A DNA stretch of 64,000 nt, taken from assembly GCA_026134025.1 (NCBI GenBank), contig JAOQII010000004.1, forward strand, positions 19,409 through 83,408. The letters are read 5' to 3'. Of this stretch, positions 5,408-64,000 are shown one piece after another. Numbering within the stretch: position 1 is the first letter of the stretch; each line of letters starts with the position of its first letter. The notes beneath the pieces are model-generated. The model saw nothing but the letters and a program-made list of their open reading frames with translations, was not told where the DNA came from and ran no database searches. The position numbers were made by a program, and so were the translations under genes. Origin of the DNA: Candidatus Syntropharchaeum sp. (GTDB lineage Archaea > Halobacteriota > Syntropharchaeia > Syntropharchaeales > Syntropharchaeaceae).

Positions 5408-8077
5408 ATGAGCGCATTGCAGCTGAAAGAACTCGATAAGATTTTTAATCCAGGTAGTATTGCCGTGATCGGTGCAAGCAATAAGAAGGAGTCCGTTGGG
5501 TACACACTCTTCAATAACTTAATCGGTGCAGGATATGAGGGGGTTGTCTATCCCGTAAACAAAAGTGCTCCAAGTGTGCAGGGTATCCACAGCTACAGGA
5601 GTGTTGATCAAATTCCAAGAAAGATCGATCTCGCACTAATTGCCGTTCCAGCAAAGACCGTCCCTGAGGTTATGCGCGAGTGTGGTGAATCAGGTATTAG
5701 AGGGGCGATCATCATCTCTGCGGGTTTTAAAGAGATCGGAGCAAAGGGTAAAGAACTCGAAGATGAAGTCCTTGATATTGCCAGAGATTATGACATCAGG
5801 TTCATAGGTCCAAACTGTCTCGGCATCATACGACCAAAGATTCATCTCAATGCGAGCTTCGCCCCGCTCATGCCGGATGATGGAAAAATTGCATTCATAT
5901 CTCAGAGTGGAGCATTATGTGCCGCGGTTCTCGACTGGTGTCATCATCGTGGGATCGGGTTCAGCTCATTTGTATCGGTCGGTTCGATGGCAGACATCAC
6001 ATTTGGAGATCTCATCGATTATTTTGGTATGGATCCAGATACAGGCGCCATCATACTCTATATCGAAGCCCTGAAAAATGTGCGGGGTTTCATGAGTGCT
6101 GCCAGACACTTTGCAAAGACCAAGCCAATAATTGTTGTAAAATCAGGAAGGTGTGAGCGCTCTGCAGCGGTTGCCACATCACATACAGGGGCGATGGCAG
6201 GAGACGACGATCTCTATGATGCTGCATTCAAACGTGCGGGTATCGTTCGTGTTACCAGGATCGAAGAACTCTTTGACTGTGCCGAAGCTCTCGATTCCCA
6301 GACCAGACCCACAGGTAATCACCTCGCCATCGTGACAAACGCCGGTGGCCCTGGAGTTATGGCTGCAGACGAGTTACTCTCACAGGGTGGTGAGCTTGCA
6401 AAGCTTTCAAATAAGACAATTGAGGCTTTAAATGCCTGTCTTCCTCCATACTGGAGTCATGGAAACCCTGTTGATATCCTGGGTGATGCAACCCCAGAAC
6501 GGTACCGTGATGCAACGTCGATCACACTCAGAGATCCAAATGTAGACGGCGTTCTTCTGCTCCTGACCCCTGTCTCGATGTCTGATTCAGAGCTTACAGC
6601 GAGGTACATCGTGGATTTAAACCGTGATATCTCACCTGGCGATGTCTTTAAACCTCTGCTTGCCTCATGGATGGGTGAGGCGCTGGTTGAGAAGGGGCGA
6701 AAGATACTGGAGTCTGGGGGTATTCCAAGTTTTGAGACACCTGAAAGTGCGGTTACCACATACCTCCACATGTACCAGTACACAAAGAACATCGCGTCCC
6801 TCTATGAGATGCCAGAGGACATTCTGACCGGGTTTCATCCTGCAAAAGACGAGGTTAAATCGATCTTCAGGACTCTTGCAAGAGAAGGGCGGGAGCTTCT
6901 AACCGTTTACGAATCGATGAAGGTGCTTGCAGCGTATGATATACCCACAGTAAAAACCATGTTAGCGCATGATCCAGAAGAGGCTATCAAGATCGCGGAT
7001 GAGATCGGCTATCCTGTGGCAATGAAGATCGTATCCCCACAGATCACACACAAGACGGATATCGGGTGTGTTAAACTCAATATCCAGACGCAGGAAGATG
7101 TAAGAACTGCGTTTGAAGAGATTAACCGCAATGCAGGAGAACACGATCCAGATGCAACGATTCATGGTGTTGCGATCCAGCCGATGGTAACTGGTGCGGG
7201 TTACGAGGTCATTATAGGATCGAAGCGGGATAAGCTCTTTGGACCTGCCATATTGTTTGGTGCAGGCGGCACGATGGTTGAGTACATCAGGGACCAAACG
7301 ATCGGTTTCCCTCCTCTAAATCAGGCGCTGGCACACAGGATGATCGAGGATACAAGAATATCAAAGATTCTCAAAAATGGTTTTAGAGGAAGTCCCCCGG
7401 CAAATATCCGCCTGATCGAGGAGGCACTTGTCAAGATTTCATTCATGCTCATAGATTTCCCTGAGATCGAAGAGATGGACATAAACCCGATCCATGTCAA
7501 TGATACCTCCCTTCTTGCACTTGATGCGCGAATTTTGATCAACCCTGGAAAGGTTAATATCAGTGAGCCACCTGGAAGCGATCTTATCATAAGCAGGTGT
7601 CCCACCAAATACAATCAGGAATGGACTTCGCCTGCAGGAGATAAAATTTTCTTCAGAGTCGTCCGTCCCGAGGATGAACCTATGTGGCTTGAGATGGTAA
7701 GATCCTTCTCTGATGAGACGATACGCCAGAGGTTCTTTGCCCCACTCTCTGAGATCGATCACCACATGGTGGTTCGATACTGCCACATCGATTACGACCG
7801 TGAGATTGCGATTGCGGCGTTTGTTGAAGGAGAGGAAGGATACAGGATGGTTGGCGTGGGTCGCGTGGTCATACTCTCGGACGAAAATACAGGTGAGTTT
7901 GGTATGGCGATACGTGATGAATATCAGGAAAGAGGTATCGGCAATAAGTTAGTTGACATAATGATCGAGATTGCCAGGGATTTCAGGTTAAGGACGATTA
8001 TAGGCGATGTGCTTGCCGATAATTACCGTATGTTGAAGATCGCAGAGGATAAAGGATTCAAGATAAAAACGCCATGA
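5408..8077 (+). CDS. Pat-like protein: NDP-forming acyl-CoA synthetase (ADP-forming ACS alpha/beta domains) fused to a C-terminal GNAT acetyltransferase
   Basis: 889 aa. N-terminal CoA-binding Rossmann (SIAVIGASNKKESVGY), succinyl-CoA-synthetase-like and ATP-grasp domains. The C-terminal roughly 150 aa carry GNAT motif A (QERGIGNKLVD). The architecture is the same as the bacterial lysine acetyltransferase Pat/PatZ. Confidence 0.75.
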   Translation: MSALQLKELDKIFNPGSIAVIGASNKKESVGYTLFNNLIGAGYEGVVYPVNKSAPSVQGIHSYRSVDQIPRKIDLALIAVPAKTVPEVMRECGESGIRGAIIISAGFKEIGAKGKELEDEVLDIARDYDIRFIGPNCLGIIRPKIHLNASFAPLMPDDGKIAFISQSGALCAAVLDWCHHRGIGFSSFVSVGSMADITFGDLIDYFGMDPDTGAIILYIEALKNVRGFMSAARHFAKTKPIIVVKSGRCERSAAVATSHTGAMAGDDDLYDAAFKRAGIVRVTRIEELFDCAEALDSQTRPTGNHLAIVTNAGGPGVMAADELLSQGGELAKLSNKTIEALNACLPPYWSHGNPVDILGDATPERYRDATSITLRDPNVDGVLLLLTPVSMSDSELTARYIVDLNRDISPGDVFKPLLASWMGEALVEKGRKILESGGIPSFETPESAVTTYLHMYQYTKNIASLYEMPEDILTGFHPAKDEVKSIFRTLAREGRELLTVYESMKVLAAYDIPTVKTMLAHDPEEAIKIADEIGYPVAMKIVSPQITHKTDIGCVKLNIQTQEDVRTAFEEINRNAGEHDPDATIHGVAIQPMVTGAGYEVIIGSKRDKLFGPAILFGAGGTMVEYIRDQTIGFPPLNQALAHRMIEDTRISKILKNGFRGSPPANIRLIEEALVKISFMLIDFPEIEEMDINPIHVNDTSLLALDARILINPGKVNISEPPGSDLIISRCPTKYNQEWTSPAGDKIFFRVVRPEDEPMWLEMVRSFSDETIRQRFFAPLSEIDHHMVVRYCHIDYDREIAIAAFVEGEEGYRMVGVGRVVILSDENTGEFGMAIRDEYQERGIGNKLVDIMIEIARDFRLRTIIGDVLADNYRMLKIAEDKGFKIKTP

Positions 8078-11447: not shown

Positions 11448-11664
11448 ACGCATCCCAAAAATATTATTTGTACCATCTGATATTTATTTCGCTTCATCCT
11501 CCACGACACGGGGGGGCGATTCGTCGAACGTCATCGTTACCAGGTACCATGTACTGGTTCCTGATTCTGGGAGTTAAATCCTGGCGAAATTTATTGGAGA
11601 TAGTACATTTTTTTGAACATGAGGGCGTAACACTTAATAAACGTTGTATCATAGGCATCTTCAG

Positions 11665-12137: not shown

Positions 12138-12713
12138 ATGGGATATCCAGGTAAGTGTAAGAAACAGTATGAAACCCCTCGCTATCCATGGCAACACGAG
12201 AAGCTCGAGGAAGATGCGAACCTCATAAAGAGGTATGGCCTCAGGAACAAACGGGAGCTGTGGAAAGCAGAGAGTACACTCAGAACATACAGACGAGAAG
12301 CGAGAGAATTGCTCGCAATAAGGGCATCAGGGATGGTCAGTGAGAGTGCAAAGCGAGAGATCGGCAACCTTGTTGATAGCCTCAAGCGGAAGGGAATTTT
12401 AAATATAGACGGTGAGCTGGAGGATATCTTAGCGCTTACGGTTGAGGATTTTCTAAACCGACGACTACAGACGATCGTAACTCAGAAAAATCTCGCAAGT
12501 TCGATGAGGCAATCGAGACAGTTCATCGTTCACGGACATATAGCGGTCGATGGTCGGCGGGTCACAATCCCGAGTTTCATGGTGAAACGAGGTCAGGAGT
12601 CAGGGGTTGATTACTACGTGCGTTCTCCGATCACGGACGAGATGCACCCTGTAAGACCTGCGATGTCCGTTGAGGTCACAGCAGAAGGAGAAGGGGTGAA
12701 CGTTGATGAGTAA
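12138..12713 (+). CDS. rps4: 30S ribosomal protein S4 (uS4)
   Basis: [26 protein letters not shown]-terminus is typical of archaeal S4. Follows S13 in the conserved order. Confidence 0.9.
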
Positions 12714-13089
12714 ATGGGCGGTTGCACATATCCATGCATCATTCAATAATACGATCATCACGATCACAGATCTGACAGGGGCTGAGGTGATCGCAAAGTC
12801 CTCTGGTGGGATGGTAGTGAAGGCTGCAAGGGATGAGAGTTCATCCTATACTGCTATGCAGATGGCGAGTGAACTTGCAGAGGAGATCAAGGACAAAGGT
12901 ATCACTGGAATTCACATCAAGGTAAGGGCTCCAGGTGGGCACAGAGAACATAGCCCAGGACCTGGTGCACAGCCGTCAATACGTGCTTTTGCAAGGGCGG
13001 GTCTCAGGATTGGCAGGATTGAGGATGTCACACCAATCCCGCACGATGGCACAAAGCCCAAGGGAGGAAAGCGCGGCAGGAGGGTGTGA
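12703..13089 (+). CDS. rps11: 30S ribosomal protein S11 (uS11)
   Basis: [25 protein letters not shown]...VRAPGG...[19 protein letters not shown] is a near-canonical archaeal S11. Confidence 0.92.
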
Positions 13090-13884
13090 GTGGCAATCGA
13101 GATTAATGTCATCGAGCTCACTGAGAGGTATGCAAAGTTCATAATATCTGGCCTGACACCCGCGTCTGCAAACGCGCTCAGGCGGTGCATGATCAATGAG
13201 GTACCGCGGATGGCGATCGATGAGGTTAATTTTTATGAAAATACATCAGTACTATTCGATGAACAGCTTGCATTGCGTCTTGGTCTCATACCACTCAGGG
13301 CAGATCCAGGACTTTACGTGCTGGAGGATGAGTGTACGTGTGAGGATGGCTGCTCACTCTGCCAGTCCACGGCTTCGATCAGTGCAGAAGGTCCCATAAA
13401 GATTTATTCGTCGGATCTCGTCATGGGCGATGAGAACATCTCGGTTGCAGATGATAATATATTGATCGTAGATCTCAAAGACGGGCAGAAACTTCTCTTG
13501 AACGCTATCATAAAGCTTGGAACAGGAGAAATGCACGCGAAATGGCAGAATGCTGTTGTATGTGGTTATAAAAACATCCCGCATGTGAGCATTACGGACT
13601 GCAACGATTGCGGTAGATGTGTTGATGTGTGTCCCAGAGACGTCTTTAAATGTGTGGATGGGCGTGTCATGATCGGGGATGATATCAACTGCTCATGCTG
13701 CAATCTCTGCGTGGAAGCCTGCGAGCTTGACGGAATCGTGATTGAAGAGGATCCTGAAGCGTTCCTCTTTAAACTTGAGACAGATGGAGGGATGACCGCG
13801 AGTGCGTTAATTGTCTATGCGGTTCGAATGCTTAGAGATAAGGCAGTCAGGCTGAAATCTGTGCTTGAGCGTTTTTCCCATTGA
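13090..13884 (+). CDS. rpoD: DNA-directed RNA polymerase subunit D (Rpo3) with 4Fe-4S cluster domain
   Basis: 264 aa, conserved position after S11, Cys clusters (CNDCGRCVDVCP, CSCCNLCVEAC). The last roughly 13 codons lie inside the 243-bp repeat. Confidence 0.85.
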   Translation: MAIEINVIELTERYAKFIISGLTPASANALRRCMINEVPRMAIDEVNFYENTSVLFDEQLALRLGLIPLRADPGLYVLEDECTCEDGCSLCQSTASISAEGPIKIYSSDLVMGDENISVADDNILIVDLKDGQKLLLNAIIKLGTGEMHAKWQNAVVCGYKNIPHVSITDCNDCGRCVDVCPRDVFKCVDGRVMIGDDINCSCCNLCVEACELDGIVIEEDPEAFLFKLETDGGMTASALIVYAVRMLRDKAVRLKSVLERFSH

Positions 13885-14088
13885 GCCTTATCCCGGTAAT
13901 CGTCGATATATTCTTCTCCTGCATCACAACACCGATCGTTGAAGAGGCACACTCGATCATCGGCTCTCTGAGTGAAACAACAATAAATTGCGCGCTCTTT
14001 GATAACTTTTTGATCATCTTTGCGACCTTCTCGACATTCACACCATCGAGCATCATATCTATCTCATCCAGTGCATAGAACGGTGCTG
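13846..14088. repeat. Copy 1 of a perfect 243-bp direct repeat, a duplicate of the smc 3' end (last about 75 codons, antisense) placed downstream of and overlapping the rpoD 3' end
   Basis: Nucleotide identity with 15706-15948 checked by eye. The ORF track shows identical 69-aa (minus) and 65-aa (plus) translations at both sites. Confidence 0.9.
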
Positions 14089-14118
14089 TCTGAAAAGAGA
14101 ATAAATTAGAGATCTGTC

Positions 14119-14892
14119 TTATTTCACCTCTGATTTTACAAATCCTTCTGTTCCGTTTATCAGCTCTTTAACTTCTTCTATTGGCGGTTCCTCTTTTGCA
14201 TGGTCACACTTATTACGAATATCCCCCAGCCATTCAATCTTTTTTCGTTTGGTTTCACTCAAATGACCCGCTTTACGCAATCCTTGGGCGAGTGAGTTGA
14301 TACCTTTAATAACAGTGTGATTCACAGGCGGCGTTGAAGTCTCGCATAAGGTCTTTAAATAGCGTTCCAATGCAACACCAGCAACCGCACCCGCAGCACG
14401 GATAAAACCGTGATCTAAAAGAAGTCTTGCCTCCTCTAATTCGCTTTCAACTAGATCTGCACTGATTGTTCTTCTTAATTTTAAGTTTTGTATTTCAAAG
14501 ACTTCAGGTAATGATAACAGTAAGTTCCTTTGTGTGTCAAAGAAATCTGTAAACTCTTTAATTATGTAATGCACATCAATCTTAGCCCAATCTTTTCGAA
14601 GTTGGAGTAAACATAAAATTTCCTCATATTCTTTTATAAATTCGTCTTTTCGATCAGATAAATATTCTTTTATCAGGGTTTCTCCTTTTGAATACCATAT
14701 TTGATATGATTGAACATATTTTCTTTGTTCCTCTCTAAAAGAGTTCTCGAATCACATCATTTCAGTATTTAAGTCATTTATATACGCAAACGTAAAGGTA
14801 TCAGATAAAAAACCAGTCACCTTTTTCTCAATTTCTTCTGCTTCCTTCTCCAATTCCCTAACAGTATGGATCAGTTCACTTAATTGTGTCAT
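14119..14892 (-). pseudogene. HEPN-domain protein (R-x4-H motif RNKCDH) interrupted by an in-frame TGA. A 47-codon N-terminal piece is followed by a 210-codon distal open frame; the listed GTG-initiated 151-aa ORF (14119-14574) is its terminal part
   Basis: Manual reverse-strand translation: ATG at 14892, in-frame TGA at 14752-14754, then a 59-codon stop-free frame continuing into ORF 14119..14574. The C-terminal GDIRNKCDHAKEE is the HEPN RNase signature. Confidence 0.5.
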
Positions 14893-14942
14893 TCATCTCA
14901 TCCCAAGTTCTTTAGACGTTTATTCTATTGAGAGATATCAAA

Positions 14943-15383
14943 TTATTCTTGCGTTAGGTATTCAAATGCACTGATATACTTGTATTTGATTACATTCTTG
15001 TATTTTGTTATCGTTCTTTCTTTTGCTACATCATGATACTTAGTTACCGTTCGTTGTTTAGCGACTTCGTGATACTTTGTGACTGTTCTCTCTTTTGGCA
15101 GATAAGTTACGACATATTGAAATTTGGAAGGTCGAAGTACTTCATAGGAGCAATTCAAAAATCTAGTACTATTAACCGTCCATTCGAATTGGTGGCTTTC
15201 ACCAGGCATCAAAAATACACTATCTGTTATAGCATTATATGATCGTTCAGTAGTTACTATATGGAAAACTACCTGAAACATTCCACCACTATCCTCTGTA
15301 TTCGTTATCATAACCATTAAATCAAGTAATTCGATAGACCCCAGTCCAGAGTACAACTTTAAAAAATGCTTATAAAAAACCAA
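14943..15383 (-). CDS. Hypothetical protein with C-terminal 11-aa tandem repeats (ERTVTKYHEVAKQ / RTVTKYHDVAKE / RTITKYKNVIKY)
   Basis: 146-aa ORF inside the repeat-flanked islet. Low GC. Confidence 0.35.
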   Translation of the reverse strand: MVFYKHFLKLYSGLGSIELLDLMVMITNTEDSGGMFQVVFHIVTTERSYNAITDSVFLMPGESHQFEWTVNSTRFLNCSYEVLRPSKFQYVVTYLPKERTVTKYHEVAKQRTVTKYHDVAKERTITKYKNVIKYKYISAFEYLTQE

Positions 15384-15421
15384 ACCCGATGTTTCATAAC
15401 TATATGGGATATTATCTGTGG

Positions 15422-15637
15422 TTAATTCTTTTTTTCATAATATGTTTCTACATCCTCATAAGGTTCCATTTCATAATATGTTTCTGTAGTTTCGTATGGC
15501 TCTGTTACATAATACGTCTCGGTCGCACTATATGGCTCCTTAACCGTGTAAGAGACTTCTATCACTGGCATAGATATTGCAACGCAAGCACACAATGTTG
15601 CCAATAAAGCACCTATTGCAATCCATTTCCTTTCCAT
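15422..15637 (-). CDS. Small secreted or membrane-anchored protein with triplicated EPY-x3-ETYY repeats
   Basis: MERKWIAIGALLATLCACVAIS signal-like N-terminus (internal Met of the 87-aa ORF), followed by KEPYSATETYYVTEPYETTETYYEMEPYEDVETYY. Confidence 0.35.
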   Translation of the reverse strand: MERKWIAIGALLATLCACVAISMPVIEVSYTVKEPYSATETYYVTEPYETTETYYEMEPYEDVETYYEKKN

Positions 15638-15705
15638 TTGTGAACCTCTAACTCTTTTTTTATTGATCCTATATAAAACTATCAATTCACATCTTAAGAG
15701 AAGCG

Positions 15706-15948
15706 GTCAGGCTGAAATCTGTGCTTGAGCGTTTTTCCCATTGAGCCTTATCCCGGTAATCGTCGATATATTCTTCTCCTGCATCACAACACCGATCGTT
15801 GAAGAGGCACACTCGATCATCGGCTCTCTGAGTGAAACAACAATAAATTGCGCGCTCTTTGATAACTTTTTGATCATCTTTGCGACCTTCTCGACATTCA
15901 CACCATCGAGCATCATATCTATCTCATCCAGTGCATAGAACGGTGCTG
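15706..15948. repeat. Copy 2 of the 243-bp direct repeat (the native 3' end of smc)
   Basis: Identical to 13846-14088 and contiguous with the smc body. Confidence 0.9.
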
Positions 15949-18900
15949 GCCTGTATCTCTGGATTGCAAAAAGAAATGAGAGTGCTGTAAGACTTTTTTC
16001 ACCACCAGATAGTGCTTCTAATCGTTGAATAGGTTTTCCTGCTGGCTGAACCTGAATCAACAGACCTCCTTCAAATGGCTTTTCTCGAGATTCAAGCAAT
16101 ATCTCACCATTCCCATCAGAAAGCTCTCTGAAGACTTCTTTGAAGTTTGCATTTATCGCATCAAAGGTTGAGAGGAAGACTTCCCGTTTTCTCATCTCAT
16201 ACCCCTCGATCCGCTCGATGATCGCACGCCGCTCATTTGAGAGTGTATTTCTTCGCTGCATTAGCTCATCAGACCGTGATTCAACCTCAAAAAACGCATC
16301 TATCGCCTTCATATTTACAGGCTCGAGTGCACGCATCCTCTCTTCAATTCGCTTAATCTGCTCTCTGATCGTATCATGATCTTCTCTAACCTCTCCCTCT
16401 GGATCGATCCCTGCTTCATCGATCCTGCGTTTTAGCTCTGTAATCTGCGATACGAGTCCTTCTTCGATCTTACGAAGATCTGTTAGTGCGCCATCGATCC
16501 GTTCACGTCTTAATTTCAATCCCTCAATCTCCTCACGGAGTTCCATGACCCGACTGAAACGCTCTTTGAATAGATTTTTAAGCTTTGAAAGCTCCTCTTC
16601 CAGTGCCTTCTCGCGTTCAAGAAGTTCTTCGCGTTCGCTCTCAAGTTCTTTGATCCTGAAGATATTATCCTTTATCTCATCGTTTATGCCCGAAAGGCTT
16701 GCATCCAGCGCTTTTAATCGGTCTTCTCCCTCAGCTATCTTCTTCTCAAGATACTCTCGATCGAGCGTGATTGACTTGATTGAGAGGTCAATCTCGCCCA
16801 TCCTACCTTCGATCATCCTTATCTCCTCGGAGATTTGACGCTCCTTCTTTGTAAGTTCGGGTATCTTCGATGCCTTCAGATCTGATTCAAGCTCACCGAT
16901 CGCTGATTCAAGCTCACTTATTCGCCTTCCTGATGCAGCGAGTGCCTCCTCAAGCTGGATAATTTCAGCCCTGTTATCCTCCTTCTCAAATCTTTCAAGC
17001 TCACGCCTGAGATCGTTCAGGTTACGTTCGCTCTCTTTCTTCTCAATCTGCAACTTATTCAGGATACTCCCCTCTTCAAAGAGATCCTCGCGAATCGTTG
17101 CGTTCCGATTCTCAAGCGCCTTTATTCGTTCAAGATGCATCTTAAGCTCTGATTCAAGGACTGTTCTCTCCTCCTGAAACTTCAGAAGCTCATTTCCTGT
17201 GCTACTTGTGAACCTGAACCGTGATTTTAAGGGTGCACCCCCTGTCATGATACCGCTTCGCTCTATAAGATCTCCATCGAGCGTAACAGACCTGAACCGA
17301 TCCATCAATCGCCTTCCATCCTCAATCGATTCAACAACCACTGTATCCCTGAAGACGTGCCAGAACGCCCGCTCGAATTTGGGATCATACTCGATCAAAT
17401 CGATCGCAAATCCAAGAACGCCTGGATAATCAAGTCCATCCAGTTTTCTCCCATCTTTAAGCTTGTTCAGAGGTAAAAATGTTGCACGCCCCTTCTTGAT
17501 CTGTTTCAGGTACTCGATCGCGTACTGTCCATCGATATCTGTCTCAACAACGATGTACTGCATTTTCCCTCCTGCTGCAGCCTCAAGCGCAACCGCAAAA
17601 CGATTTTCTACCCTTCCAAGCTCAGCAATCGTTCCATAAACCCCCTCAAGCTGATGCATTCTCACAGCTTCCATAACAGACTTAACACCCTCGCTATACC
17701 CTTTGAATTCCTTTTCTGCGAGTACACGGGCCTCTATTTCCATTATCTTCCGCTCTAAAGCTTTGAGATCTTTCTCACGGCCATTCAGCAACGTGCGCTC
17801 TTCACCAAGCACCTTCTCATTCTCCTCAAGTTCCCTGGATAGCTCATGCGTTCTCTTTGCTCTAAGTGAGATCTCTCTCTTCTTTGTATCAAGCTCTTTC
17901 GCAAGTTTTTTCATTCTTTCAGTTATCAAATCAATTTCACCAGATCTTCTTCGTGAACGGTCGAGTATCATATCCTGTTTCATCAGAATCTCGTTCTTTT
18001 TTGACTGCTCAACCTCAAGCTCTCTACGGAGGGTGTATAACCTGTGGGTCGCATCCTCTGCCTTAGATCCTGCAGACTCAATCTCCTTTTTTATTCCATC
18101 AAGGATCGCGGTCTTCTCATCCAGCGTCTCCTTCAAGCTTCCCTTTCGTATCCGCTCATCATCGAAGCGTTTTAATGTGTCTTCAAGCTCCTGACGGTTT
18201 GATTCAAGCTCTATGAAGATACTGTTCTTCTGTGTCTTTAGATCTTCTATCCGCTCTCTACCCAGCGATACAAGCTCTTTGAAACGAGTTATAGTGCCAG
18301 AAACTTCTTCGAGACTTTTTTTAATGGTTAACACTTCTTCTTCACGTTTTTTTACAAGCCGTACCTCGTCTTCATCAAGATCTGACTGTATATCCTCCAT
18401 CTGTGCTGTTTTATTTGAAATACCCCTTGATATAATCTCTTTCTTCTCCAATCTATCCTCTATTGAGCTTTTTATCTCATCAAACTCCTGCTCTTTGAGA
18501 TTGAGGTCTGCAAGAAGGAGAGACGCCTCACACCGTACCTTCTCCTCCTTGAGGTTTTCATACATAAGCGCCTGATCTCGTTCGGTCTGGAGGACTTTGA
18601 GACGGTTTTTAAGTTCTTCAAGGATAATATCGAGCCTCTCGATCCTTGATCGCACCTCATCAAGCTCATGATGCGCTCGCTCCTTCTTTTCATCAAACTC
18701 CGCCACGCCAGAGATCTCATCTATGATCTTTCGCCGCTCAAATGAACTCATATTGAGTATTCTGGTGACATCGCCCTGCATTATCACATTGTATGAGTTT
18801 GAGGTGATGAAAGACCTGCTCAGTATCTCCTGGATCTCTGAAAATGTGCACGGCTTCCCATTGATATAATAATAACTGTAATAACCGTTATCCGTCTTTT

Positions 18901-19210
18901 TTACCTTCCTTGAAATCGTAACAGCATCTCTATCTATCGGAATTAAACGATCACTATTGTCAAAGTGGACCTTCACTTCGGCCTGATTTATCCCATCTCC
19001 ATTACCAGAGCTGTAGATAAGATCGGTCAGCTTATCGGCGCGCATATCTCTCGATTTTGAGAGCCCAAGCGTGAAGAGGATAGCATCAAGTACATTGCTC
19101 TTTCCACTCCCATTGGGTCCTGAAATCGTCATAAACTCGTCAAAGAGCGGTATATGAGTCTGATTTTTAAATGATTTAAAGTTCTTCAGGTCTATACCCT
19201 TAATATGCAC
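15707..19210 (-). CDS. smc: Chromosome segregation protein SMC
   Basis: 1167 aa. N-terminal Walker A (ISGPNGSGKSNVLDAILF), long coiled coils, hinge, C-terminal LSGGEKSLTALSFLFAIQ signature plus Walker B (FYALDEIDMMLD). Confidence 0.95.
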   Translation of the reverse strand: MHIKGIDLKNFKSFKNQTHIPLFDEFMTISGPNGSGKSNVLDAILFTLGLSKSRDMRADKLTDLIYSSGNGDGINQAEVKVHFDNSDRLIPIDRDAVTISRKVKKTDNGYYSYYYINGKPCTFSEIQEILSRSFITSNSYNVIMQGDVTRILNMSSFERRKIIDEISGVAEFDEKKERAHHELDEVRSRIERLDIILEELKNRLKVLQTERDQALMYENLKEEKVRCEASLLLADLNLKEQEFDEIKSSIEDRLEKKEIISRGISNKTAQMEDIQSDLDEDEVRLVKKREEEVLTIKKSLEEVSGTITRFKELVSLGRERIEDLKTQKNSIFIELESNRQELEDTLKRFDDERIRKGSLKETLDEKTAILDGIKKEIESAGSKAEDATHRLYTLRRELEVEQSKKNEILMKQDMILDRSRRRSGEIDLITERMKKLAKELDTKKREISLRAKRTHELSRELEENEKVLGEERTLLNGREKDLKALERKIMEIEARVLAEKEFKGYSEGVKSVMEAVRMHQLEGVYGTIAELGRVENRFAVALEAAAGGKMQYIVVETDIDGQYAIEYLKQIKKGRATFLPLNKLKDGRKLDGLDYPGVLGFAIDLIEYDPKFERAFWHVFRDTVVVESIEDGRRLMDRFRSVTLDGDLIERSGIMTGGAPLKSRFRFTSSTGNELLKFQEERTVLESELKMHLERIKALENRNATIREDLFEEGSILNKLQIEKKESERNLNDLRRELERFEKEDNRAEIIQLEEALAASGRRISELESAIGELESDLKASKIPELTKKERQISEEIRMIEGRMGEIDLSIKSITLDREYLEKKIAEGEDRLKALDASLSGINDEIKDNIFRIKELESEREELLEREKALEEELSKLKNLFKERFSRVMELREEIEGLKLRRERIDGALTDLRKIEEGLVSQITELKRRIDEAGIDPEGEVREDHDTIREQIKRIEERMRALEPVNMKAIDAFFEVESRSDELMQRRNTLSNERRAIIERIEGYEMRKREVFLSTFDAINANFKEVFRELSDGNGEILLESREKPFEGGLLIQVQPAGKPIQRLEALSGGEKSLTALSFLFAIQRYRPAPFYALDEIDMMLDGVNVEKVAKMIKKLSKSAQFIVVSLREPMIECASSTIGVVMQEKNISTITGIRLNGKNAQAQISA

Positions 19211-19551
19211 AATTCCATCCCCGAATTAGTATTGAGTCCAATTATATATTAAGTTAACCATTGACCGCAAAGTTCTTAAAGAATAAACGCAAGGTATGAT
19301 TACAAGCTTCATGATCATAATCAGATCATATAATTACAGTCAGTTACAATTCATCATTCACTCGTATAATCGTCTTGAATTTGATTGAATCTTAATAAGA
19401 TAAAAAGCTGCGATTAAAAGATAAAAGGGATCGTAGAAGTCTATTGGGTTGTTATCTGACTTATTTTGATATTGATCTGATATTGAAGTAAAGATCCAAT
19501 AAATTGAAAGGAGGATACAGATGAATACAAAAAATAGATGGGGGTTTAATT

Positions 19552-32680: not shown

Positions 32681-32817
32681 GATATATCTTTATTCAGGCT
32701 CACTTAAACGATTGCGGGTGATGACAAAATGACATCCATGCTCGCATGATCACAAAATTTATATAGGGGTAATTAGAGAAGTAATTTGATTACACAGAGG
32801 TAAGTAGGCGATATGGT

Positions 32818-33486
32818 ATGAAGATGATTAGAATGGCACTGGTTGGAGTGCTTCTGATGATGGTGGTTATGCCGGCGGTTGGGGCTACATTCACGCTTGC
32901 TGATGAAGTGAAAAATTCGGTCGATAGCCAACCATATATCGTTATAGTTATGGAGCAGGGGGGTGGACCACCTGTTATACTAAAGCAAGGTGAGTCATAC
33001 GAGGTTCTTAGCGGCGTGCCTGTCAACTTCACGGCGGTATATATCTGGAAATGGCCTGGGAATGAGTTGAGTGATAATGAGATATTGGATATCGTACAAA
33101 GTGATGGAGAGACCATCAATAAATTTCAACAAAATACAGTTACTTCGCAAGCGTTCAATATAAAGAATATGTGGAAGGTGTATATCAATGAATCTACGGG
33201 TGACAGCACGGTATTAGGAGAAGGTGGACCATTGGATTTGAAGTGGAAATTCATACCGCGTTGCTACCTAGTTGGATGGACGCCGGCAGATAAAGTAAAT
33301 GAATACTATCCAGGCAAGGTTGGATCAACGTTTGATGTGACTGCAATGTGGAATAAATGGTGTTGGGGATCATCAATTCTTACAATAGAAGATATAGGTA
33401 TCGTCCCAGAACCCACCACTCTCGCCTTGACAGTCCTTGGCATCCTGGGCATTCTTGGATTTGTTAGAAGGAGAAGAGAGGCGTAA
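32818..33486 (+). CDS. PEP-CTERM-type sorting-signal protein (secreted)
   Basis: Signal peptide MKMIRMALVGVLLMMVVMPAVGA. C-terminus VPEPTTLALTVLGILGILGFVRRRREA. Confidence 0.65.
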   Translation: MKMIRMALVGVLLMMVVMPAVGATFTLADEVKNSVDSQPYIVIVMEQGGGPPVILKQGESYEVLSGVPVNFTAVYIWKWPGNELSDNEILDIVQSDGETINKFQQNTVTSQAFNIKNMWKVYINESTGDSTVLGEGGPLDLKWKFIPRCYLVGWTPADKVNEYYPGKVGSTFDVTAMWNKWCWGSSILTIEDIGIVPEPTTLALTVLGILGILGFVRRRREA

Positions 33487-33553
33487 CACGTATTATCACA
33501 ATGTTTATAACTGATAATGTGAGAGATGAAGTAATAATAGGAGGCGATATTGT

Positions 33554-34087
33554 ATGAAGACAATTAGAATGGCACTGGTTGGAGTGTTTCTGATGATGCT
33601 GGTTATGCCGGCGGTGGCAGCGTATAATATAGATATTTTCATGGATTGGAACCATGATGGTAATTTCGCGTGCGATGAAAGGCTTGTGCCAGGTGCTAAC
33701 TATACCGTTACGGCTGGTGTGGAGTATGATTTTATAGCCCACTTCTACGACTGGGGAGCGGACTCTTTTACATGGAATTTTGATGTTGGTGGACGCCATG
33801 ACGGTGAAGGGACAACATATCAGTATGGCGGGTACTGTAAGAATTGTAGCTGTTGCATGGATTGTGGCTGGTGGTCCAATGTATTATCCTATACCCCGGT
33901 GCTTGATGAGACCTTTGAGGTAAGTGCAGATTGCCTTGCCCATGGGATAACTGGATATTATGGTAGTACAAACGTAACGTTTGAAGCAGCAAGCATAACT
34001 GCCGTCCCAGAACCCACCACCCTCGCTCTAACAGCCCTTGGCATGCTGGGTGTTCTTGGATTTGTCAGAAGGAGAAGAGAGGCGTGA
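33554..34087 (+). CDS. PEP-CTERM-type sorting-signal protein, Cys-rich paralog
   Basis: Near-identical signal peptide (MKTIRMALVGVFLMMLVMPAVAA) and C-terminus (VPEPTTLALTALGMLGVLGFVRRRREA). Cys cluster YCKNCSCCMDCGWW. Confidence 0.65.
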   Translation: MKTIRMALVGVFLMMLVMPAVAAYNIDIFMDWNHDGNFACDERLVPGANYTVTAGVEYDFIAHFYDWGADSFTWNFDVGGRHDGEGTTYQYGGYCKNCSCCMDCGWWSNVLSYTPVLDETFEVSADCLAHGITGYYGSTNVTFEAASITAVPEPTTLALTALGMLGVLGFVRRRREA

Positions 34088-47198: not shown

Positions 47199-47483
47199 AA
47201 GGAATCCCCCGTATTATCTCTTTACTACGAGTTTCTATATATATGTATTTTCATTTGGTAATCGATTAGCGTGGAATTTGAGCGAATAGTTCTTTGGAAA
47301 GATTTTTAAATCGCAACTCATAGTGTTAATAACGATAACGACTCCTGGAGGTTCAAGAATGGGAGAGATGACAGAGGAGCAGAAACGGGTGAAGGTTCAG
47401 GCATGCAGGGATGAAGTGGGGGATAAGTTCCCGATGAAGACCTGCATCGAGCACTGCCCGCTCTATGAGATCTGTAAGGATCT

Positions 47484-47569
47484 GCCGAGGTAGCCAAGCG
47501 GCCTACGGCGCTGGTCTTGAAAACCAGTGGGGCATACGTCCCGCAAGGGTTCAAATCCCTTCCTCGGCG
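47484..47569 (+). tRNA. tRNA-Ser (anticodon TGA), class II with long variable arm
   Basis: Acceptor stem GCCGAGG/CCTCGGC, anticodon loop CTTGAAA, long extra arm, T-loop GGTTCAAATCC. Confidence 0.85.
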
Positions 47570-47578
47570 TTTTTTTTT
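47570..47578 (+). terminator. Oligo-T tract immediately 3' of tRNA-Ser (archaeal-type terminator)
   Basis: A run of nine T residues directly after the discriminator base. Confidence 0.45.
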
Positions 47579-47876
47579 GGGAAAGAGGCAATGCGTCTCT
47601 ATCGTAATTTTTTAATGTTGCATGACTCACACGACAAAACACCCACCTGTGGCAGGGCCACTGACGTGTTAGGTCGGAGACTGAGTTAAGAGGTAAGGTG
47701 AGATGCACCTCATGCTGAAAAATCACAATATTTGAGGTTTATCAACCCCGGGCACTTGATCTGAACGCTAATCGAGAGCGGTTGATGGATGAATGGGGAC
47801 TTAGCTGATCAGGTATTAAATGTTGCCATAAAGATATAAACAAATAAATTAAGTTCGAATAGTATGGTGGTAAGCC

Positions 47877-48905
47877 ATGGGTGATTACAGAGATCGGAGT
47901 TATTTATCTGCGATAGAAGCCGCTAAATTTCTAAATATTTCTGTGAAGAAATTGCACGGATTAACAAGAAATAATACTATCGAATACAAAAAATCAGCCA
48001 GCGGTCAGATGAGATACGATCTGGAAGACCTGAAAAAATACGCTGAAGAAAATCATATACAATTGGATGGCGTGAATATAGAAATAAAACGTCTCTCTCA
48101 GCTTAAAATAGACAACACCATTCAAAAATTCATTTTTGGGAGTTCTATGGAGATGAAAGAGTTAGAAGATGATTCGGTACATCTCATGATCACTTCGCCA
48201 CCGTATTTTAACGCTAAAATGTATACAAATGAGCCGATTGAAGGCGATTTAGGGAATGTTCATGATTTAAATGAATGGTTTTCAGATATATCAAAAGTTT
48301 GGAAAGAGGTTTATCGAGTATTACAACCCGGTAGAAAAGCCTTTATTAACATAATGAATCTTCCCATACGAGAAAATAAAACTTTCAGGAGTCTAAATCT
48401 GGTTGGTAAAACAATTGATGTTATGGAAGATATTGGTTTTATTTTTAAGAGAGACATAATATGGCATAAAACAAACGGTGTTAAAGCACACTTCGGAACG
48501 TATCCATATCCAGGCGGTATATTGTTAAATAACATGCACGAATTCATATTAGAATTTAGCAAACCCGAGAAGAGAGGATTTAAAAAATACGGACATCTAA
48601 CCAAAGAACAGAAAGAAAAATCAAAAATAGAAAAAGATTTCTGGTTGAAATTAAAAAACAGTGATGTATGGTTGATAAAACCAGAAAAAAGCGGGGATAA
48701 CCGTAATCATGTAGCGCCTTTCCCCTATGAACTTCCTTTTCGGTTGATCAAAGCCTACAGTTACATTTCTGAGACCGTACTCGATCCCTTTGCGGGCTCA
48801 TTTGTTACATTGAAAGCCGCAAAAGATTTAGAAAGAAACGGAATTGGGTATGAGATAAATAAAGAAATTCTCAAGGAGGCACTGATTGAATTTGAAAGTG
48901 AGTAA
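47877..48905 (+). CDS. DNA methyltransferase (N4-C/N6-A, beta-class, SPPY motif) with N-terminal HTH
   Basis: Motif IV ITSPPYF precedes motif I LDPFAGSFVT. N-terminal MerR/excisionase-like HTH (LSAIEAAKFLNISVKKL). GC visibly lower than its surroundings. Confidence 0.8.
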   Translation: MGDYRDRSYLSAIEAAKFLNISVKKLHGLTRNNTIEYKKSASGQMRYDLEDLKKYAEENHIQLDGVNIEIKRLSQLKIDNTIQKFIFGSSMEMKELEDDSVHLMITSPPYFNAKMYTNEPIEGDLGNVHDLNEWFSDISKVWKEVYRVLQPGRKAFINIMNLPIRENKTFRSLNLVGKTIDVMEDIGFIFKRDIIWHKTNGVKAHFGTYPYPGGILLNNMHEFILEFSKPEKRGFKKYGHLTKEQKEKSKIEKDFWLKLKNSDVWLIKPEKSGDNRNHVAPFPYELPFRLIKAYSYISETVLDPFAGSFVTLKAAKDLERNGIGYEINKEILKEALIEFESE

Positions 48906-49356: not shown

Positions 49357-49402
49357 TTATAAAAGGAGATGGTCTGAGTATGAATAATTACGCAAGAGGT
49401 CT
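49357..49402 (+). repeat. 46-bp conserved element, copy A (ttataaaaGGAGATGGTCTGAGTATGAATAATTACGCAAGAGGTCT)
   Basis: 42/46 identity with 62488-62533. Begins with a TATA-like ttataaaa. Confidence 0.7.
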
Positions 49403-62233: not shown

Positions 62234-62254
62234 TCAGTATCCATTCTTTTTGAT

Positions 62255-62339
62255 GCGGGGGTTGCCAAGCCAGGTCAAAGGCGCAGGGCTTAGGACCCTG
62301 TCTCGTAGGAGTTCGCGAGTTCGAATCTCGTCCCCCGCA
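62255..62339 (+). tRNA. tRNA-Leu (anticodon TAG), class II with long variable arm
   Basis: Acceptor GCGGGGG/CCCCCGC, anticodon stem CAGGG/CCCTG with loop CTTAGGA, long extra arm, T-loop GTTCGAATC. Confidence 0.85.
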
Positions 62340-62487
62340 TAGCCCTCCCTCAGGGGTTGCGAGCTAATTGCCAGAGAATCGATCCAAGATCAAGAATCAT
62401 TACGTCTTACTTGGCAACGATGACGTTCGACGATCTGGAGGCACCGGAGCAGGAACTCCAGCGTTTCAGAAATAGAGTCTTGGAATA

Positions 62488-62533
62488 TTATAAAAAGTGA
62501 TGGTCTGAGTATGAATGATTACGCAAGAGGTCT
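62488..62533 (+). repeat. 46-bp conserved element, copy B (ttataaaaAGTGATGGTCTGAGTATGAATGATTACGCAAGAGGTCT)
   Basis: Near-identical to 49357-49402. Located about 150 bp 3' of tRNA-Leu. Confidence 0.7.
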
Positions 62534-62548
62534 TTATCCTCTCATACA

Positions 62549-63376
62549 TCAGCCATACATATCCTTCAACCCTTCTCGTACAGCTTCCTCCATAACCTCA
62601 AGCGGCGGATCGACCCCCAGCCAGATCCTGAATGACTCCGCCCCCTGATAGACGAGCATCTTGACACCATCTATCGTCAGGCACCCTCTACGCTCTGCCT
62701 CACCAAGCAGCATGGTTTTTTGGGGGTTATAGACAAGATCAAATACGATCAGGTCCTCGTGAAGGAGGTCAGGGTCTATCGGAATTTTATCAACCTCCGG
62801 GTACATACCTACCGATGTTGTGTTTATGAGAATATCAGACTCGGCTATAACAGGTGCGATTCTCTCTCTTTCAAGACCGATTGCAGTAACACTCCCACCA
62901 AGCTCATCAGCCAGTCTTTCACCCTTTTCTTTTGTCCTGTTTGAGATTACAAGCTTGCAACCTGCCTCAACACAGGAGAAAGCTACTGCACGGGAAGCTC
63001 CACCTGCACCAAGCATCAGAACACGTTTATCTCCAAGATCAATACCTGCTGACCGAAGCGAACCTGTAACGCCAAACGCATCGGTATTGTATCCTTTTTC
63101 ACGGATGAAATCGATCGTATTTACCGCACCGATTCTTTCTGCAAGTGGATCGGGATCGATAAACGCCATCACAGCCTCTTTGTGTGGGACTGTGACGTTG
63201 AGACCCTGAATTCCAAGCGCCTTTGCACCACGGATTGCTTCGCTCAGATCTTCAGATTTCACGCGAAATGGGAGATACGTACACTCAAGCTCGAGCGCCC
63301 TGTATGCAGCATTGTGCATCCTCGGGGAGAGTGAATGCCCGATCGGGTCACCGATAACACCGAATATCCGCATCAT
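62549..63376 (-). CDS. aroE: Shikimate dehydrogenase
   Basis: IFGVIGDPIGHSLSPRMHNAAYRAL N-terminus, GAGGASRAV NADP-binding loop. 275 aa. Confidence 0.9.
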   Translation of the reverse strand: MMRIFGVIGDPIGHSLSPRMHNAAYRALELECTYLPFRVKSEDLSEAIRGAKALGIQGLNVTVPHKEAVMAFIDPDPLAERIGAVNTIDFIREKGYNTDAFGVTGSLRSAGIDLGDKRVLMLGAGGASRAVAFSCVEAGCKLVISNRTKEKGERLADELGGSVTAIGLERERIAPVIAESDILINTTSVGMYPEVDKIPIDPDLLHEDLIVFDLVYNPQKTMLLGEAERRGCLTIDGVKMLVYQGAESFRIWLGVDPPLEVMEEAVREGLKDMYG

Positions 63377-64000
63377 AGAAGCGCATCTCTTATGAGTCCT
63401 GCAACGCTCACGGAACTTGTAATTGTCTCGATCGTGTCTGTTGAGAACGGGCTGATTTTAGCCTTCTTAAGCCTCAAAAGTGCGTTCCTAACAAATACGC
63501 CGTGGATGCATCCTGCATAGATATTCCCTGCACCGTTTCGCTTCAGGAGATTTGCAGCTTCGATGATCGTCCCACCGCTTGAGATGATATCATCAACGAT
63601 TATAACATCCCTGTCTGCTACAGCAAGATCCCTGTCCTCGATTACGACCTCATCGTCACTTATTCGTTTCTTTCTAAGCCAGTCCCAATCAAGCTCACCG
63701 CCTGCTGCCACAGATGCTGCAAGTTCTTTTGCCCCACCATCGGGTGCAATAACAAGCGGATCCGTGAGGTTTAGCCCATCGATATAATCTCCGATAACTG
63801 CTGCAGCGTTAAGGTCACGTGCTGAAGATGTGAAATACTTCATCACACCAGGGTTGTGGATATTTATCGTAAATACGCGATCCGCTTCGATCGTTCTTGC
63901 AAGTGCACGGGCTGTTACCCCTTCCCCGGCTTTAAACCGCTTATCCTGCCTTGCGTATCCAAAGTAGGGAATAACAACTGAGATGCTATCTGCAACCACA
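63373..64000 (-). CDS. prs: Ribose-phosphate pyrophosphokinase (PRPP synthetase), C-terminal part; the N-terminus lies beyond the window end
   Basis: PYFGYARQDKR catalytic flexible-loop motif and DDIISSGGTI PRPP-binding motif. 4-nt overlap with the aroE start. Confidence 0.85.
   Translation of the reverse strand, partial: VVADSISVVIPYFGYARQDKRFKAGEGVTARALARTIEADRVFTINIHNPGVMKYFTSSARDLNAAAVIGDYIDGLNLTDPLVIAPDGGAKELAASVAAGGELDWDWLRKKRISDDEVVIEDRDLAVADRDVIIVDDIISSGGTIIEAANLLKRNGAGNIYAGCIHGVFVRNALLRLKKAKISPFSTDTIETITSSVSVAGLIRDALL

Follow-up and report, generated by a model that had tools for sequence, protein, structure and literature searches.

How did a 1.6-kb block of low-GC (guanine plus cytosine) DNA come to lie between two convergent, overlapping genes and leave both of them intact? 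The locus is part of a 64,000-nt stretch of Candidatus (Ca.) Syntrophoarchaeum DNA (deposited as Candidatus Syntropharchaeum sp., assembly GCA_026134025.1, contig JAOQII010000004.1, forward-strand positions 19,409–83,408), hereafter the window, numbered from its first base. Here, a 1,617-bp islet separates rpoD, encoding RNA polymerase subunit D, from smc and is bordered on each side by one copy of a 243-bp direct repeat. Foreign DNA has been inserted at this site, the adjoining host DNA has been duplicated, and both genes of the cargo are pseudogenes. With moderate confidence, we favor a recombinase-independent capture of the foreign DNA in which the host duplication arose in the same event. 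The features of the locus, from left to right, are as follows.

13090–13884, + strand: rpoD, gene for the Rpb3-like, 4Fe-4S-domain-bearing subunit D of RNA polymerase (Pfam hits RNA_pol_L, RNA_pol_A_bac and Fer4)
13846–14088, no strand assigned: R1, left copy of the 243-bp direct repeat, present as a single copy in the conspecific contig L015
13847–14088, − strand: displaced second copy of the final 80 codons and stop of smc, non-functional, with a translation equal to the SMC C-terminus
14089–14131, no strand assigned: r1′, degenerate continuation of the smc duplication, matching smc at 15949–16003
14119–14892, − strand: HEPN-protein pseudogene, ~260 aa, with the Rx4H motif RNKCDH (Pfam HEPN, 8.7e-6, above the gathering score)
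14943–15637, − strand: signal-anchored repeat-protein pseudogene, ~200 aa; single 200-aa open reading frames (ORFs) in contigs L009, L011 and L097 span both window ORFs
15670–15677, − strand: TATA-box-like sequence TTTATATA, ~30 nt upstream of the first gene of the module, in a conserved upstream block
15693–15705, no strand assigned: r2′, possible degenerate continuation or microhomology patch, CTTAAGAGAAGCG against CTTAGAGATAAGGCA in rpoD (13831–13845)
15706–15948, no strand assigned: R2, right-hand copy of the 243-bp exact repeat, running on into the smc body
15707–19210, − strand: smc, intact, 1,167 aa (Pfam SMC_N, 2.4e-65, and SMC_hinge)

Base-by-base comparison of positions 13846–14088 and 15706–15948 reveals exact identity over 243 bp, with 1,617 bp of unique DNA (14089–15705) between the copies, confirming the perfect repeat around ~1.6 kb that the first-pass annotation had described. 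No third copy was found within the window. The repeat tool reports 246 nt, adding the preceding GC and one mismatch (GCA vs GCG) that encodes Ala both ways in the rpoD frame, and the exact identity block stops 1 nt beyond the smc stop codon. The GC content of the islet is 0.35, compared with 0.46 for the window.

Each repeat copy completes a different gene. The left copy supplies the end of rpoD, whose product is 77% identical to RpoD of Ca. S. butanivorans; the 13 codons originally assigned to this copy are exact for the stop and the last 12 codons, the thirteenth residue being encoded by the synonymous Ala codon. The right copy supplies the last 80 codons and the stop of smc, which ends here intact, and it holds the true SMC C-terminus, as had been proposed. 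The corresponding smc tail in the left copy is displaced, and the 69-aa ORF at 13847–14056 is part of it. The coding regions of rpoD and smc overlap tail to tail by 38 bp (window 13847–13884).

Both junctions between islet and repeat exist in the reads. In Logan, which assembled run SRR21418560 independently with k=31, a 1,677-bp unitig (L003) is composed of the islet and exactly 30 nt of repeat on each side; because this unitig spans both junctions, they are real in the reads, and the assembler mis-join initially entertained as an artefact is unlikely. L003 differs from the window at one position (15700, T in L003 and G in the window), and further unitigs from the same run, including L099 and L100, are 100% identical to the window. 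Position 15700 lies 6 nt outside the right repeat copy, and the islet-bearing population is polymorphic (G/T) there.

An empty counterpart of the site is present in the same species. A conspecific Joint Genome Institute (JGI) metagenome contig (L015, Ga0164318_10025406), 98.8% identical to the window, carries one copy of the 243 bp and no insert. Superimposed on the window minus 1,860 bp, it is colinear at 5,727 of 5,727 positions, with 68 differences. The same direct convergence of rpoD and smc, with a 38-bp overlap and no insert, is found in S. butanivorans (L001, 10758–10795), in two close relatives (L002 and L016) and in a third species (L017). The overlap is conserved across three Syntrophoarchaeum species, and the uninserted arrangement anticipated for relatives is borne out by the conspecific contig and by two other species of the genus. 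The two-copy arrangement with its insert is a derived, strain-specific state. L015 could represent either a never-occupied site or a revertant, since homologous recombination between identical repeats would recreate the empty site exactly. Exact-protein look-ups for additional strains returned only the same run, SRR21418560, or no match.

At the sole repeat position that differs in L015, both window copies share one allele, which fits a duplication of the host's own DNA. Polarization of this in-repeat single-nucleotide polymorphism by outgroups was dropped as uninformative, the outgroups being split between T and A. The relatives also bear on the gene order around the insertion. That L18e-L13-S9 is missing after rpoD, and scpA after smc, as the first-pass annotation noted, is a genus trait unrelated to the insertion, because the uninserted Syntrophoarchaeum relatives (L001, L002, L016 and L017) lack them there too; it is ancestral to the genus. 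In Syntrophoarchaeum, the conserved 38-bp overlap accompanies this loss of the usual rpoD-L18e-L13-S9 and smc-scpA linkages.

The cargo itself reads as a dead two-gene module and not as three genes. The HEPN gene is interrupted, as had been noticed at the outset, by a single in-frame TGA at 14752–14754 in place of a TGG Trp codon, a position occupied by Trp in five of five homologues. Full-length intact homologues are 74% identical to the pseudogene, and one ORF of 268 aa in the ENA contig L009 spans the 46-aa and 151-aa ORFs of the window. The islet version is without the native C-terminal tail, its ORF ending in smc-derived DNA. The RNKCDH motif is conserved among the homologues. An AlphaFold model of the L009 orthologue (pLDDT 88.5) yields Foldseek matches to 2hsb, 1o3u, 1ufb, 5yep and 7ae9, with template-modeling (TM) scores of ~0.5–0.7, and its C-terminal half matches solved HEPN domains at a TM score of ~0.7. 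The ratio of nonsynonymous to synonymous substitution rates (dN/dS) of the pseudogene against intact homologues is 0.23–0.31, equal to the level among the intact homologues, which argues that the pseudogene has not been drifting neutrally for long.

The second gene was at first taken for two small repeat-containing proteins, which turn out to be halves of one gene: a frameshift in an A7 run at 15429–15435 splits it into ORFs of 87 aa and 146 aa. The intact 200-aa protein is composed of a signal anchor, EPYxxTETYY repeats, a beta-rich middle and TVTKYHxVAK repeats. Upstream of the homologous gene in L009, L010, L097 and L011–L014 lies the conserved block GATAnTTTTATATAG. Whatever the context, this TATA-like block lies ahead of the first gene, so the module arrived with a predicted promoter region of its own. 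A bacterial-type promoter and terminator scan is uninformative for archaeal sequence, and an Rfam scan of 12500–17000 gave no match.

No MNT/nucleotidyltransferase partner for the HEPN gene is present in the islet, and PADLOC, NCBIfam and PHROGs provided no informative match for the islet genes. We regard the cargo as a putative HEPN RNase-type toxin or defense module. In its inactivated state, it would do nothing for the host.

The origin of this module is traced by its relatives. The cargo is homologous over 1.5 kb, at 72–81% nucleotide identity, to loci at which HEPN is invariably adjacent to prs (PRPP synthase). In L004/L005, L009, L095/L096 and L097/L098, the HEPN gene is followed directly by prs, the paired loci being located as follows.

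L004, 1165–2831: HEPN-prs locus
L009, 3033–3988: HEPN-prs locus
L095, 4263–5145: HEPN-prs locus
L097, 2780–3709: HEPN-prs locus

Prs proteins from the HEPN-bearing contigs are ~80% identical mutually and only 51% identical to the window's own Prs (63373–63999). Since the HEPN relatives adjoin a prs whose product matches that of the host so distantly, the donor belongs to another clade, which is Methanophagales-like; one cargo homologue carries a Methanophagales annotation. No HEPN gene lies upstream of the host's own prs. The module genes are low-GC in every host, and no direct repeats were found flanking the homologous HEPN genes in other contigs. Judged from these comparisons, the cargo is a piece of ordinary chromosome, not of a recognizable mobile element.

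The donor-type loci vary in their surroundings. In Methanophagales-like contigs, the HEPN gene either overlaps the prs start or lies within ~15 nt of it, and the gene upstream of HEPN encodes the 200-aa membrane repeat protein or unrelated proteins of 242 or 243 aa. In L009, the HEPN gene adjoins an AbiV-like fragment and a restriction-enzyme-like gene. The HEPN-prs adjacency could be either a fixed pair or an insertion hot spot.

The borders of the islet are not equally clean. At the left, the 43 nt of r1′ show ~84% identity to smc 15949–16003 across 38 aligned nt; of the three indels, one is a 14-nt deletion right at the exact-repeat boundary. This match (local alignment score 16.5, p ~0.0006–0.0014) is the best in the window on both strands and lies at the syntenic position; r1′ is closest to smc of its own species, and the HEPN ORF now takes its final codons and stop from it. 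Because r1′ continues the smc copy beyond the exact repeat, the original duplication was longer than 243 bp, probably ~300 bp. An alternative reading of the left islet end as the first codons of the donor prs was dropped, the same 43 nt matching host smc much better, and syntenically.

At the right border, r2′ matches the rpoD sequence preceding the left copy at 11–12 of 13 nt, with two 1-nt gaps. As an anchored extension, the match has p ~0.001–0.007; it is not significant in a window-wide scan. The T allele at 15700 (L003) makes r2′ more rpoD-like. A foreign, element-borne rpoD end was also considered here, suggested by the comparison of ..IHILREA/VRLK.. with ..IHLLKERA/IRLK.. of S. butanivorans RpoD. 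It was rejected: in L009, L011 and L097, the module's upstream region contains homologues of the TATA block and of CACATC, leaving only ~13 nt unexplained. At least one junction appears complex, with degenerate host-derived DNA adjoining the exact repeat.

No mobility function accompanies the cargo. Pfam scans of all islet ORFs found only HEPN, and no integrase, excisionase or transposase was found in them or in the neighboring ORFs scanned; the first-pass annotation had likewise seen no integrase. The characteristics of a transposable element, whether insertion sequence (IS), miniature inverted-repeat transposable element or casposon, are missing: no terminal inverted repeats were found at the islet, no transposase is present, and the duplication measures at least 243 bp and is not short. 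IMG/VR scans with the 146-aa ORF, the SMC C-terminus and HEPN found nothing similar. Phage and plasmid collections held no copy of the cargo or of the smc end, and an attP form was not found there.

A second use of the site was likewise not encountered, no smc 3′-end duplication flanking an insert being found in 82 smc loci, among which this lineage is thinly sampled. Candidates for recurrent smc 3′-end duplication proved unrelated, comprising a scpA-smc chimera in L052 and short low-complexity repeats in L042, L044 and L068. In L052 (Ga0102928_1083835, 337–1168), a haloarchaeon-like contig of 1,466 bp, the ScpA N-terminus continues in frame into a second SMC C-terminal copy, 81% identical, which starts at the Walker-B DE(I/V)D motif, near the start point of the window's repeat. 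This fusion could have arisen by genuine recombination or through chimeric assembly.

The mechanism that we infer would begin with the capture, by one Ca. Syntrophoarchaeum lineage, of a ~1.56-kb foreign chromosomal fragment encompassing the promoter, the repeat-protein gene and the HEPN gene. The fragment would have landed at the 38-bp rpoD/smc overlap without a site-specific recombinase, and the insertion and the duplication of host DNA (243 bp exact, probably ~300 bp originally) would both have come from one illegitimate-recombination event. Two routes may be envisaged. In a template switch of the microhomology-mediated break-induced replication (MMBIR) type, replication would leave the host, copy the foreign template and re-enter the host upstream of its exit, yielding an A-R-islet-R-B arrangement with error-rich sequence at the re-entry point. 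Alternatively, the fragment may have bridged two chromosome copies at staggered positions.

Such an insertion would persist only where the duplication spans the overlap, with rpoD ending in the left copy and smc in the right. Because an insertion into the 38-bp overlap without a duplication would cut short rpoD, smc or both, only overlap-spanning duplications would be seen. The cargo would then have been inactivated, or may already have been inactive on arrival, which would fit a HEPN toxin transferred without a working partner. Foreign chromosomal cargo without mobility functions, as expected of recombinase-independent duplication-insertion, is what the islet contains.

Several points weigh against this capture and bring its rivals into play. 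To our knowledge, MMBIR-type repair has no demonstration in these archaea. Junction microhomology is weakly supported, r2′ being non-significant window-wide at its anchored p of ~0.001–0.007, and the closest sampled cargo loci, at 72–81% nucleotide identity, place the immediate donor outside the sampled sequences. The 16% divergence and the indels of r1′ beside 243 identical bases could reflect an old duplication with a center homogenized by gene conversion, the 14-nt deletion acting as a conversion barrier; the dN/dS values argue against a long residence of the pseudogene. Two further features would be expected of a site-specific integrative element: long exact direct repeats at the 3′ end of a conserved gene, here including the smc 3′ end at both borders and enclosing foreign low-GC DNA, and an identity block that ends 1 nt past the smc stop, as if the element had supplied the gene end. 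The first-pass annotation had proposed such a small element, inserted into the convergent overlap and regenerating the smc 3′ end. The insertion in the overlap holds, as does a duplication that keeps both 3′ ends intact, whereas the site-specific element is not supported. It would be a remnant or non-autonomous element with the smc 3′ end as its attachment site, carrying smc and rpoD ends and recombining within the 243 bp, its integrase deleted or encoded elsewhere; it may be likened to e14 or phage 21 in icd, or to a cis-mobilizable element between attL and attR. The displaced gene-end fragment on the far side resembles icdC (PMC13626634), and the degenerate host-like DNA outside the identity block could be an old captured copy whose center was refreshed by repeated integration and excision. 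Against this stand the lack of an integrase, excisionase or transposase in the islet and scanned neighboring ORFs and of terminal inverted repeats, a cargo that forms a compact pair of chromosomal genes from another clade without an element backbone, and the complex junction. No attP-bearing virus or plasmid with the smc end or the cargo occurs in the collections searched, and there is no second occupancy in the 82 smc loci or in three congeneric species. In addition, r1′ is closest to the host's own species, and the repeats are identical, whereas element-borne gene ends usually differ synonymously, as in icd/icdC. We consider a site-specific element unlikely, and weaker than recombinase-independent capture.

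Less probable still is a Campbell-type pop-in, in which a circle composed of the foreign fragment illegitimately joined to a ~300-bp host fragment would generate the repeats through a single homologous crossover. The A-R-I-R-B topology is the exact product of one crossover, the copies match each other completely and bear the host allele, and degenerate host-derived ends (r1′, possibly r2′) border the foreign core as they would in a ligated host fragment. This route, however, needs three events (two illegitimate joints, then homologous recombination) in place of one, does not account for indels and substitutions reaching as far as 40 nt into r1′ and has no known free form; the final structure alone does not separate it from recombinase-independent capture. 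The assembly data fit a chromosomal islet and, equally, an additional circle or tandem array, raising the prospect that the chromosome holds one 243-bp copy and that the assembler threaded in a separate circle or array of islet plus repeat. A de Bruijn loop from repeat through islet to repeat fits both structures, the Logan unitig breaks off on either side after exactly 30 nt of repeat, and an empty-site contig comes from another sample. Yet the 1.86-kb unit would have no replication gene and two dead genes, a 243-bp repeat is short enough to be bridged by the ordinary read pairs that modern assemblers use, and both junctions are real in the reads, joining the islet to host DNA on both sides in either case. 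We hold such an assembly product to be very improbable.

Recombinase-independent capture also stands apart from the best-known parallels. With e14 and phage 21 in Escherichia coli icd, the gene is kept intact by a second copy of its 3′ end, and the icdC fragment remains at the other border (PMC13626634, citing Hill et al.). The islet shares with e14 the foreign DNA in the 3′ end of a conserved gene, the displaced C-terminal fragment and removal by recombination between the copies. In contrast, e14 encodes an integrase and excises site-specifically, and the icd end differs from icdC synonymously, whereas the islet combines no recombinase found, identical copies, a 1.6-kb chromosomal cargo from another clade and the rescue of two overlapping genes, not one.

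Foreign DNA without mobility genes can integrate with little or no homology through homology-facilitated illegitimate recombination (HFIR) or double illegitimate recombination (PMC3240628; bioRxiv 10.1101/2023.11.22.568220). When Streptococcus pneumoniae is transformed with lethal cassettes, the duplications recovered retain an intact copy of the essential target (PMC3784515). These are laboratory events in bacteria, with duplications of 100–900 kb bounded by IS repeats or with patches of a few nt; the islet, in contrast, is a natural archaeal event with a duplication of ~0.25–0.3 kb exactly spanning a gene overlap. MMBIR and fork stalling and template switching (FoSTeS) produce complex junctions at which imperfect copies rich in indels lie close to the points of template switching (PMC2621351), and the islet is similar in its flanking target duplication and its complex r1′ junction. 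It differs in that the model derives from eukaryotes and E. coli and that microhomology at the islet is weakly supported.

The cargo is comparable to HEPN toxin and abortive-infection (Abi) modules (HEPN-MNT and AbiU2/AbiV/Abi_C types) in its HEPN fold, Rx4H motif, low GC content, accessory nature and patchy distribution. It differs in having no MNT partner and no PADLOC or NCBIfam match, in pairing with a signal-anchored repeat protein, in the fixed position of the donor-clade gene beside prs and in the inactivation of both window genes.

Elsewhere in the window, a tRNA-Ser(tga) at 47483–47570 is followed by a second low-GC stretch (0.32) at 47801–48901, where the ORF at 47877–48905 (+ strand) encodes an HTH_17 domain fused to an N6/N4 DNA methylase. 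The 47483–48905 region has the appearance of a further foreign islet or of a residual tRNA-integrated element, and no flanking direct repeats were found there. A 50-nt inverted pair (11521–11570 and 62384–62433, 80%) and a 46-nt direct pair (49357–49402 and 62488–62533, 93%) connect three intergenic regions, two of the elements lying just downstream of tRNA-Leu (62254–62340). Tandem paralogues at 32818–33486 and 33554–34087 (region 32803–34087) are alike at their 5′ ends (77 nt, 92%) and 3′ ends (83 nt, 89%) and differ in their middles. Beyond the window end, the gene just upstream of the host prs (L099 1–1197) resembles, by eye, the C-terminal portion of an alkyl-coenzyme M reductase alpha subunit of the McrA/AcrA type.

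Homologous recombination between the identical repeats could remove the islet and would leave an exact empty site. There is a slim chance that the 1.86-kb unit of islet plus one repeat is a minimal, recombinase-free mobile cassette riding on homology, or one mobilized by a recombinase encoded elsewhere. If so, it would loop out as a circle via the 243-bp repeats and re-enter conspecific chromosomes at the smc/rpoD ends, and, in a polyploid archaeal population that recombines, a piece of two important genes would provide a safe attachment site that repairs itself. For annotation, the locus calls for caution: MCW7075991.1, recorded as a HEPN domain protein, and the two small ORFs represent fragments of pseudogenes, and the 69-aa ORF is a duplicated smc tail.

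Taken as a whole, the locus is a well-documented case of ordinary horizontal gene capture and reveals no new kind of system. It provides a natural example, from an uncultured alkane-oxidizing archaeon and with the empty site known, of chromosomal DNA devoid of mobility genes entering a tail-to-tail gene overlap, where the accompanying duplication rescues both rpoD and smc. It also documents gene flow from a Methanophagales-like clade into Syntrophoarchaeum and illustrates how fast a HEPN-type module may be inactivated after transfer.

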